64,000 nucleotides of DNA. Source: Candidatus Pelagisphaera sp. GTDB taxonomy: Bacteria; Verrucomicrobiota; Verrucomicrobiia; Opitutales; Opitutaceae. The stretch is from contig JBNMOQ010000002.1 in the NCBI GenBank assembly GCA_051275055.1, positions 2,056 to 66,055 on the forward strand. Reading direction: 5' to 3'. A model generated the notes under the pieces. The model did no database searches. It was not told the DNA's origin and saw only the letters and a list, made by a program, of their open reading frames with translations. Within the stretch, counting starts at the first letter, position 1. Every line of letters starts with the position of its first letter. Below are positions 28,228-59,207 of this stretch, piece after piece. The translations under genes and the position numbers were made by a program.

Positions 28228-28869
28228 TCAGCTAATCAAAGCTGATTCGCAAACAGTCGCTTGCCGACGCTTCCACCAAAGCTTGGCTTTCGAATCGTCA
28301 TCAAATAAGACCGCTTCGATCCCCAAACGACTAGCCGCTTCGACATGCTGCTTTAGATCATCGAAATACACCACCTCGGAAGGATCACATTTATGCTGCT
28401 CGAGGATGAATTTGAAAACACGAGGTTCAGGTTTCCGCATTCCAATCTCATTCGACAAATAGCGATGATCGAAAGCACTGCTCAACCCCTTATAGTTTTC
28501 CTGTAAATACTCGGTATGCGTAGCGTTCGTATTGGACATAGCAACCACCGTCACTCCGGCTTCCTGCATCGAACGTACAGTGTTCATTGTCGACTCGATC
28601 ACTTCGCCAAACATTGAATTCCAACCCTCTTTCCACTGTTCGAAATCGAGAACAAAACCACTTACCATACAAAAATACTCCGCGTAAGCACGCCCTGACA
28701 CTGTCCCGCGTTCATACTCCTCGTATTGATCATCGATCGGAAAGTCTCTAGAAAGCGAACCGGGTCTAATCCCAGCCATTTCCTCCCAATCGATGTAACA
28801 ACGTTCCAAATGCGTCCGAATGCATACTTGTCCCAAGTCGAATATAGCTAGTTTCAGTTCGTTGTTCAT
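28228..28869 (-). CDS. HAD family phosphatase (YihX-like)
   Basis: FDLGQV, SNTN..H, RKPEP..F, FDD...HVEAA. Confidence 0.92.
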   Translation of the reverse strand: MNNELKLAIFDLGQVCIRTHLERCYIDWEEMAGIRPGSLSRDFPIDDQYEEYERGTVSGRAYAEYFCMVSGFVLDFEQWKEGWNSMFGEVIESTMNTVRSMQEAGVTVVAMSNTNATHTEYLQENYKGLSSAFDHRYLSNEIGMRKPEPRVFKFILEQHKCDPSEVVYFDDLKQHVEAASRLGIEAVLFDDDSKAKLWWKRRQATVCESALIS

Positions 28870-28971
28870 AGTTATTTGCGGATATGGGTTTTAATGAATC
28901 CAACTACAATCGACTCGATTATTATGATTTTTATACGCCGAAAACAAAACCAGTAATATTACCGAATATCA

Positions 28972-29589
28972 TTACGCATCAGCAACAATACCGGCCTCAA
29001 TGAACCACCCTAGAAAACCACGCATCGCATTGCCTCTGTGGCTGATAGCCGCCTTTTCCTCCGGCTTCATCTCCGCAGTCGTGCACACTTCGCCCAAGGG
29101 CAAAAAAACAGGATCATAACCAAATCCACCCTCGCCTCGTCGCTCCCTCAGAATCGTTCCGAGAATCTCGCCAACAAAGATTCGTTCTTCGCCATGCGGG
29201 GCCACGACCGCCAAATGACATTCGAAACTCCCGCCTCGCTCGTCATCCGGCACATTTTCCATTTCTCGAATCAACTTCTCAAGATTCTCCTCGTCGGTCG
29301 CACCTTCACCCGCATAGCGAGCCGAATACACTCCCGGAGCGCCATCGAACGCCTCGATGCAAATTCCGCTATCATCGGCCAACGCAAGCCCATCCTCAGG
29401 CAACAGAGCCGCCAAGGCCCGAGCCTTCTTCAACGCATTCCCCGAAAACGTATCCTGATCCTCAACCACCTCAGGCATTCCGCCAACAGCTTCAGCCGTG
29501 TGAACTTCAATATCGATCCCTGCCGCCGACAACATCGCCGCCAACTCCTCGATCTTATGGAGATTACTCGTTGCTAAATACAGTTTCAT
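28972..29589 (-). CDS. rdgB: Non-canonical purine NTP pyrophosphatase (RdgB/HAM1)
   Basis: ATSNLHK, ADDSG, PGVYSARY, GFGYDP, SHRG. Confidence 0.96.
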   Translation of the reverse strand: MKLYLATSNLHKIEELAAMLSAAGIDIEVHTAEAVGGMPEVVEDQDTFSGNALKKARALAALLPEDGLALADDSGICIEAFDGAPGVYSARYAGEGATDEENLEKLIREMENVPDDERGGSFECHLAVVAPHGEERIFVGEILGTILRERRGEGGFGYDPVFLPLGEVCTTAEMKPEEKAAISHRGNAMRGFLGWFIEAGIVADA

Positions 29590-30730
29590 CTACGTCCAAG
29601 CGTGATGGATACGATACAAACCCCCGCATCAACTGGTCATCCCCATACACCTCATTGCGAACCCGCTCTAGACGAATCGCCTGGGACAATTTCTCAATTC
29701 GCATACCTCGATACACCGGTTTTGCCTTATCATCTCCCAATAATACAGGAGCCCGGTAGTTGAAATGATAATCCAACTCTCGCATATGCAAAAGCTCGCT
29801 AGTCAGCTTGCTACCTCCTTCGAAATAGATCCCGTTAATGCCGACATCGTAGCATTTCTTCTTAAACTCCGAAAACGGTACTTTCATGTTTTCCGCCGGC
29901 AAGACCCACACATTCACTCCCTCAGTTTCCAAACGACGAATGTACCCGGTGCCAGCCGCATCTGTAGTGACCACGATCGTATTGTCGCGATAATCGTCCG
30001 TGTAAACCGAAGGCAAGTAACGCTCCATCGCCGTGCGCAATAACCCGTCCATAACGAACCTTACGCCACACCATTCTTCTTCACCGTCGATACGGCTCGT
30101 TAAACGTGGGCCATCCTTGATCACCGTTCCGGCTCCGACTCCAATCGCCGGAAATAAACGACGCCAATGCATCACGTTCTGCCGAGCCTCTTCGCCCGTA
30201 ATCCATTTCGACTCTCCCGTACGACAGGCGATTTTTCCGTCTAACGTGGTCGCGGATTTCGCCGCCAACATCGGAGAACGCTTGTTGACCCAGTGATTGA
30301 AAATCAGATTCAAATCCTCGCAGTCATCGGTCAAAATCCGGCGTTCCACCTGAATTCCCGATTCCTTCAACGCCTCTGCGCCTTTGTTCTCATGATCCGC
30401 TACAGGATCGCAGGCCCCAATCAATACATGTCGCACACCCGATTCGACGATCGCTTTAACACCGGAATCCAAACGATTTGAAGATGACCCGGGCTCGAGT
30501 GTCAAAAACAGACTCGCCTCGCCTACCGGCTTGCGTCCCAGCGACTCAAACAGACGCGTCTCCGGCCCTCTCGAACCCGATTGGGAGACATGTTCGCGAG
30601 CAACTATTTCCCCCTTTTCGACCAAAACTGCGCCGATCATTGGCTGCGGATGCGTCCGGCCCCACCCCTTACGCGCCTCGTCTAGAGCCGCTTTCATGAA
30701 GATTTCCTTTTCAGATTGTGTCATGGCCAT
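29564..30730 (-). CDS. ribD: RibD-like protein; reductase intact, deaminase Zn site degenerate
   Basis: Reductase motifs KSATTLDGK, SKWITG..AR, EGG..L; deaminase HAE replaced by GPE, EPC by EPG, PPC by DSG (checked in the DNA). Confidence 0.9.
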   Translation of the reverse strand: MAMTQSEKEIFMKAALDEARKGWGRTHPQPMIGAVLVEKGEIVAREHVSQSGSRGPETRLFESLGRKPVGEASLFLTLEPGSSSNRLDSGVKAIVESGVRHVLIGACDPVADHENKGAEALKESGIQVERRILTDDCEDLNLIFNHWVNKRSPMLAAKSATTLDGKIACRTGESKWITGEEARQNVMHWRRLFPAIGVGAGTVIKDGPRLTSRIDGEEEWCGVRFVMDGLLRTAMERYLPSVYTDDYRDNTIVVTTDAAGTGYIRRLETEGVNVWVLPAENMKVPFSEFKKKCYDVGINGIYFEGGSKLTSELLHMRELDYHFNYRAPVLLGDDKAKPVYRGMRIEKLSQAIRLERVRNEVYGDDQLMRGFVSYPSRLDVDETVFSNE

Positions 30731-59130: not shown

Positions 59131-59207
59131 TGGTACACTGTGAGGGAATCGAACCCCCAACCTCCTGATTCGTAGTCAGGTGCTCTATCCAATTGAGCTA
59201 ACAGTGC
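59131..59207 (-). tRNA. tRNA-Arg(ACG)
   Basis: GCACTGTTAGCTCAATTGGATAGAGCACCTGACTACGAATCAGGAGGTTGGGGGTTCGATTCCCTCACAGTGTACCA; 77 nt, anticodon ACG, encoded CCA. Confidence 0.98.

Follow-up and report, generated by a model that had tools for sequence, protein, structure and literature searches.

A RibD homologue with a degenerate deaminase domain and a putative stand-alone deaminase partner in Pelagicoccus and its relatives

The RibD homologue encoded in a 64,000-nucleotide stretch of DNA from Candidatus Pelagisphaera sp. (the window) has lost all three zinc ligands of its deaminase domain, and most sampled genomes of its genus (Pelagicoccus and relatives) encode, in addition, a small RibD-type deaminase with an intact zinc site. 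We consider it likely that these two proteins share what is usually the task of one, i.e. that a RibD with a dead domain works alongside a separate deaminase of about 150 aa and that the domain was kept after it had become redundant. The 388-aa RibD homologue would then act as reductase only, its N-terminal half being a folded but catalytically dead relic (a pseudoenzyme domain), and the prior deamination of 2,5-diamino-6-ribosylamino-pyrimidinone 5'-phosphate would be carried out by the separate RibD-type deaminase. The gene of the latter would be a paralogue that goes back to ribD of the order itself and, once present, would have rendered the deaminase site of the full-length RibD redundant, so that the zinc ligands could be lost in the ancestor of the genus; the dead domain would have been kept, most likely since the reductase depends on it to fold, to remain stable or to assemble.

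Results

The deaminase domain lacks its zinc site

A preliminary description of this DNA had placed a RibD homologue with a degenerate deaminase domain at 29564-30730, which is borne out by the list of open reading frames and by profile matches; the ORF lies on the minus strand. The features of the gene are, in window coordinates:

29564..30730, minus strand: 388-aa ribD homologue with a pseudo-deaminase domain and an intact pyrimidine reductase domain (ORF list, TIGR00326, match to PDB 2b3z, AlphaFold)
30290..30730, minus strand: N-terminal pseudo-deaminase domain of the CDA fold, residues 1-147, without zinc ligands (PF00383 below cut-off; Gly55/Gly81/Gly90; pLDDT 90-97)
30566..30568, minus strand: codon GGG, Gly55, replaces the zinc-ligand His of the HxE motif (alignment)
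30560..30562, minus strand: codon GAG, Glu57, the former catalytic Glu, kept in 45 of 45 clade members (alignment)
30488..30490, minus strand: codon GGG, Gly81, replaces the first zinc-ligand Cys, TLEPC to TLEPG (alignment)
30461..30463, minus strand: codon GGT, Gly90, replaces the second zinc-ligand Cys (alignment)
29567..30289, minus strand: C-terminal RibD_C reductase domain, residues 148-388 (PF01872, 91.6 bits; Lys158, LDGK, WIT, Asp206 and EGG intact)

In the alignment to B. subtilis RibG (PDB 2b3z) and in multiple alignments His49, Cys74 and Cys83 of RibG correspond to Gly55, Gly81 and Gly90 of the 388-aa protein, and Glu57 is kept, i.e. the protein reads GPE where canonical RibD has HAE. 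The alignment to RibG thus confirms the loss of all zinc ligands that had been read from the letters (HAE to GPE, TLEPC to TLEPG and the third ligand, a Cys, to Gly). Comparison with the substrate-contact residues of RibG (PMC8256712) reveals further exchanges, as the ribose-binding Asn103 is replaced by Val110 and the position of His76 is occupied by a Ser; besides, Gln29 takes the place of Asn in the NP motif. Asp101 of RibG corresponds to Asp108, and the position of the phosphate-binding Lys79 to Arg86.

The Pfam profile dCMP_cyt_deam_1 (PF00383) scores 19.8 bits on the 388-aa protein, below its cut-off of 25, but its match covers residues 7-104 and profile positions 3-100, i.e. the whole profile, so that the N-domain is full length, as had been claimed, and degenerate. 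The reductase columns Lys158, Asp164, Trp176-Ile177-Thr178, Asp206 and Glu304 (EGG at 304-306) are invariant in dead and intact relatives alike, in agreement with the earlier reading of KSATTLDGK, WITG and EGG as intact motifs, and Lys158, Asp206 and Glu304 correspond to Lys151, Asp199 and Glu290 of B. subtilis RibG. The profile for bifunctional RibD (TIGR00326) scores 209.2 bits against a cut-off of 156.35, and the best PDB sequence match is RibG itself (2b3z, E = 3e-47). The AlphaFold model (pLDDT 88.7; 90-97 in the N-domain blocks) has 2b3z/4g3m as best fold match and superposes on the RibG and RibD structures, the predicted fold being partly homology-derived, as the input alignment contained intact homologues.

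The loss is old and the domain is under purifying selection

The His/Cys/Cys ligands are missing from each of the 45 sequences with at least 72% identity to the 388-aa protein among its 120 best database homologues, and the 75 with at most 59% identity all carry HAE and both Cys residues. The dead clade takes in cultured organisms, namely Pelagicoccus mobilis, P. albus and strain DG1235 (RefSeq proteins). Sequencing error or chance is ruled out as source of the loss, since 45 independent database sequences have it. Recent decay, for which the preliminary description would have taken intact ligands in close relatives as the sign, is ruled out as well, since the dead form is found throughout the genus, i.e. 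in all 45 database sequences with at least 72% identity. Within the clade the His position is occupied by G, C, S, A, P, V or M, as expected for a site no longer under constraint, and Glu57 is constant.

The dead domain is under purifying selection. Its dN/dS values within the genus range from 0.04 to 0.17, those of the reductase domain from 0.01 to 0.07 (Nei-Gojobori method, pairs with unsaturated dS), and it is full length, without indels or frameshifts, in 45 sequences of 72-96% identity. The ratio of N-domain to reductase divergence is 2.2 in the dead clade vs 0.73 in intact relatives, i.e. the N-domain evolves about three times faster, and the constraint on it is relaxed but by no means lost. 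Compared with the active stand-alone deaminase described below, the dead domain is the better conserved of the two in 28 of 28 matched genome pairs (mean identity across the genus 76% vs 67%), suggesting that it is more than passive scaffolding. In trees a long stem of 1.2-1.6 substitutions per site leads to the N-domains of the genus, the internal branches of which are short, indicating one fast change and a steady course since; the stem of the reductase domain, which nests within its own family, measures 0.33 substitutions per site. The dead clade also carries new, clade-specific conserved motifs in the N-domain.

A stand-alone deaminase in the genus

A survey for a second deaminase covered 40 relatives. 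A second match, restricted to residues 5-145 (about 150 aa) and located in open frames of about 150-280 aa, is present in 14 of the 16 other genus genomes sampled, both closed genomes among them, and the genus genomes without a second match, or without a RibD homologue, are incomplete ones. The eight other genera of the family sampled in the same survey have one full-length RibD, which is intact, and lack the stand-alone copy. All eight short proteins that were read retain HAE, TLEPC and the second Cys, and the stand-alone deaminase is a single-domain protein of 150-157 aa. Its gene has a nitroreductase gene on one side and a yidD-like ORF followed by a sulfatase gene on the other and is not linked to the ribD homologue, i.e. 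the two are found on different contigs or, in the closed genomes, 0.56 Mb (G013) and about 3 Mb (G016) apart; strain DG1235 has both the dead RibD and the stand-alone deaminase on one 5.5-Mb contig. In annotations the small protein is often named just 'cytidine/deoxycytidylate deaminase domain protein', and RefSeq names the orthologues of the 388-aa protein from Pelagicoccus and DG1235 'bifunctional ... RibD' or 'riboflavin biosynthesis protein RibD', the label 'bifunctional' resulting from the TIGR00326 score above the cut-off. With a dead RibD called bifunctional and a deaminase named so vaguely, metabolic reconstructions would credit the wrong gene with the deaminase step.

A tblastn search for a stand-alone deaminase was negative in the assembly from which the window comes (447 contigs, 92% complete, smallest contig 3023 bp), the only other gene of the CDA fold in it being tadA. 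The flanks of the deaminase gene in the two closest genomes align with C113 of this assembly up to the final base and with C211 close to the contig end, and the genes between these flanks were found nowhere in the assembly, from which, given the smallest contig, a piece shorter than 3023 bp would have dropped out. This gap is bridged in metagenome contigs: the last 3 kb of C113 recur in four of them (L049-L052) with 99.4-99.5% identity, and the end of C211 in three (L049-L051) with 97.7%; the intervening 3.7 kb hold genes for a tRNA U5-methyltransferase, SufE, a nitroreductase and the deaminase as well as a small ORF and the beginning of a sulfatase gene. The metagenome contigs encode exactly the protein P0122, the stand-alone deaminase from the window's species (157 aa), which has all ligands and matches positions 1-134 of TIGR00326 with 137 bits and TadA with 42 bits. 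From these near-identical contigs we infer that the source organism probably carries the stand-alone deaminase in the gap between its contigs. A dispersed short repeat (100-300 bp, 70-90% identity) adjoins the deaminase locus in another genome (G006, L036:8217-8514), and about 40 partial copies of it are spread over the contigs of the window's assembly (G000); a copy at the end of C211 probably caused the assembly break that hides the gene. Thus, the genome search for a second intact deaminase suggested in the preliminary description drew a blank in the organism's own assembly and succeeded in the 14 other genus genomes and on the conspecific contigs, and the split pathway that had been proposed gains support from the intact RibD-type deaminase at both places.

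Origin and states across the order

In a survey of the order (250 genomes sampled, ten followed up) five states can be distinguished. Most genomes have a bifunctional RibD alone. An intact RibD together with a stand-alone deaminase is found in G121 and G244, and a dead RibD together with a stand-alone deaminase in the window's genus, in G043 and G075 from another family, and in G041, a metagenome-assembled genome (MAG) of the Puniceicoccaceae. G176 combines a reductase-only ORF without the N-domain with a stand-alone deaminase, i.e. the dead domain is not universally indispensable, and G177, from the window's own family, has a dead RibD and a second intact full-length RibD. In G177 (loci L081, G177:C22:121864-122931, and L071) the His of the dead-ligand RibD is replaced by Gly, the Glu by Thr and the two Cys residues by Gly and Ser. 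The second RibD of this genome is placed with the E. coli outgroup and belongs to an open frame of 578 aa; it may have been acquired horizontally and fused to something upstream.

All 16 stand-alone deaminases, coming from five families, have a single origin, as they form one clade (support 99/97) nested in the RibD N-domains of the order, and they share the signature PNPRVG where RibD has THPNPMVG. The nesting marks the stand-alone gene as an old paralogue of the order's own ribD, and as its clade spans five families the duplication predates the genus. A sister-group relation of dead and stand-alone domains, which would place the duplication in the genus ancestor, is not rejected by the AU test (p = 0.37). 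The dead domains have at least two independent origins, because that of G177 (G177a) sits apart. Those of the genus group with those of family f19 and the MAG G041 (support 86/88), which may be a long-branch attraction. Among 150 representatives of RibD clusters from all public data there are four further full-length proteins with degenerate ligands (4 of about 143, about 3%), so that the loss recurs beyond the Pelagicoccus genus. The 388-aa protein itself arose within the RibD lineage of the Opitutales, in which both of its domains nest.

Pathway and genomic context

The gene downstream of ribD is:

28972..29589, minus strand: rdgB/Ham1, non-canonical NTP pyrophosphatase (PF01725, 210 bits)

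The first 26 nt of rdgB/Ham1 overlap the end of ribD, stop codon included, and this hints at co-translation. It is followed on the same strand by the gene of a YihX-like HAD phosphatase (the two genes span 28228-29589 of the window, minus strand), a possible candidate for the 5-amino-6-ribitylaminouracil-phosphate phosphatase step, the match being generic. An Rfam search of the window (1-64000) at gathering thresholds found no FMN riboswitch and a tRNA as its single match (59134-59207, minus strand), i.e. ribD is without recognizable riboswitch control.

The other riboflavin genes of the window's genome encode a RibB fusion and RibH (contig C14), RibE (C209) and RibF (C87). In the RibB fusion (L091:2081-3226, minus strand) all three zinc cysteines of the GTP cyclohydrolase II-like C-domain are replaced (VHAENLFTDLFRKVGKQSHD), and TIGR00505 scores 63.5 bits against a cut-off of 205.9, so that this C-domain is a dead domain of the RibBX type. 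In the two closed and four other high-quality genus genomes the RibB fusion is the sole match to PF00925, leaving the first step of riboflavin synthesis without a recognizable enzyme in these six; the GTP cyclohydrolase II step is unaccounted for in most genus genomes, and the pathway reconstruction is incomplete in this respect.

An accessory cluster on contig C75 (L090:1134-8333) encodes a canonical RibA, a Rib7-like pyrimidine reductase, a Zn-ADH-like dehydrogenase and a PTPS-like protein, and beside it lie a GT4 glycosyltransferase, a weak methyltransferase match, a CDP-alcohol phosphatidyltransferase and an LPG-synthase-TM protein. The Rib7-like paralogue has a Cys where the specificity Lys stands. 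Since only 6 of 17 genus genomes have the cluster, neither of the two closed ones among them, its Rib7-like protein is ruled out as a core gene, i.e. as the true riboflavin reductase in a fungal-type order of steps.

Discussion

Retention of the dead domain

According to passages in PMC3668577 that cite Magalhaes 2008, mutation of the zinc ligands in E. coli RibD reportedly abolishes the deaminase but not the reductase activity, and separate monofunctional deaminase and reductase reportedly still give turnover. Transferred to the genus studied here, a RibD without zinc ligands would remain a reductase and could be served by a deaminase on another polypeptide. The plainest reading of why the dead domain is retained would be a structural role for the reductase. 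That the N-domain is a neutral remnant heading for deletion, with no selection in its favour, we regard as very unlikely: although its threefold faster evolution relative to the reductase, the free variation at the ligand positions and the deletion of the domain in G176 are what such a remnant would show, the low dN/dS values largely refute it, and the full length of the domain without indels or frameshifts in all 45 sequences and an identity across the genus exceeding that of an active deaminase speak against it as well. That the N-domain has remained catalytically active as a deaminase, by way of another metal site or mechanism, is extremely improbable. Glu57 is kept in all members and the fold is confidently predicted, but Gly, Ala, Pro or Ser at the three ligand positions, with a His position that differs between species, the exchange of the ribose-binding Asn103 for Val and of His76 for Ser, and the presence of an intact deaminase in every complete genome with the dead form argue against it.

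It is conceivable, though we find it rather doubtful, that the dead domain has a new, selected role, either as docking partner of the stand-alone deaminase, similar to the active/inactive CDA pair of the tRNA deaminase Tad2/Tad3, which would couple deaminase and reductase physically, or as regulatory module that would bind a ligand such as a pathway intermediate and act on the reductase. This would go along with its conservation beyond that of the active deaminase in all matched pairs, with the long stem followed by a slow-evolving crown, with the new clade-specific motifs and with the retention of Glu57, Asp108 and Arg86, the RibG equivalents of which contact pyrimidine, ribose and phosphate. 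There is also a precedent in the same pathway, RibBX of S. oneidensis, in which RibB is reportedly regulated by an X domain that is itself inactive (PMC10012899), and protein-protein interaction has been proposed for the dead domains of plant PyrR/PyrD (PMC9678776). However, the two genes are unlinked, G176 manages without the domain, and the conservation could also stem from tight packing against the reductase domain. If the domain did have such a role, the Opitutales would represent a natural series from bifunctional RibD via bifunctional RibD with a spare deaminase and dead domain with a spare deaminase to deletion of the domain.

Comparison with known systems

In plants, according to passages in PMC9678776 and PMC6793443 that cite Hasnain et al. 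2013, PyrR (Arabidopsis At3g47390/PHS1, maize DEK33) has a deaminase-like domain without catalytic residues and an active reductase, and PyrD deaminates. The protein described here resembles PyrR in being a full-length RibD homologue with a retained degenerate deaminase domain and an intact reductase, accompanied by a second gene for deamination. Of the PyrR-like split envisaged in the preliminary description the division as such stands, but not a partner of the PyrD kind and not kinship with PyrR. Plant PyrD is a full-length protein with a dead reductase half, whereas the partner in the genus is a stand-alone deaminase of about 150 aa; PyrR has a C-terminal COG3236 (N-glycosidase) domain, whereas the 388-aa protein ends after the reductase domain, with no third domain found in Pfam or NCBIfam; and both domains of the 388-aa protein nest in RibDs of the Opitutales, which speaks against common descent with PyrR. 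As judged from the trees, the likeness to PyrR is one of convergence and the protein an independently evolved bacterial counterpart.

Canonical RibD/RibG from E. coli and B. subtilis has the same architecture, length, fold and reductase active site, and the 388-aa protein passes TIGR00326; what it lacks is the zinc site (His/Cys/Cys) by which the deaminase half is defined. Deaminase and reductase are likewise located on separate polypeptides in bacteria with split ribD and in the systems of archaeal RED and fungal Rib7. Buchnera, for example, has separate ribD1 and ribD2 genes. Unlike archaeal RED and Rib7, the reductase polypeptide described here keeps a full dead deaminase domain and Lys158, which is present in all members of the dead clade, and TIGR01508 scores 64 bits on the 388-aa protein against a cut-off of 186, i.e. 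it does not belong to the Rib7/archaeal type, the members of which stand alone, with about 220-250 aa, and act before deamination. A Lys at the position equivalent to Lys158 was reportedly described by Chen et al. in 2009 as marking specificity for the deaminated substrate, in contrast to Rib7-type enzymes.

The same logic is encountered at another step of the same pathway. RibBX from Shewanella, Aeromonas and Bradyrhizobium consists of RibB and an inactive GTP cyclohydrolase II-like domain (PMC10012899), the zinc-binding residues of which were reportedly lost after a separate gene had supplied the activity, the dead domain being kept (PMC10012899, in a passage citing Brutinel 2013). In both cases the zinc residues of one domain are lost and the domain remains, but enzyme and fold are different, and the cyclohydrolase step is concerned there, the deaminase step here.

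Plants are the only group for which a survey of the deaminase fold mentions RibD-like members without activity (PMC3239186), and our search of the literature outside subscription journals found no description of a bacterial RibD with an inactive deaminase. A division of labour of this type is known from plants already. The bacterial case would be an independently evolved parallel to the plant PyrD/PyrR split in culturable organisms, i.e. Pelagicoccus mobilis, P. albus and strain DG1235, in which the role of a retained dead enzyme domain is accessible to genetic tests, and as several evolutionary states are found side by side in one order, the Opitutales provide a tidy system for studying subfunctionalization after partial gene duplication.
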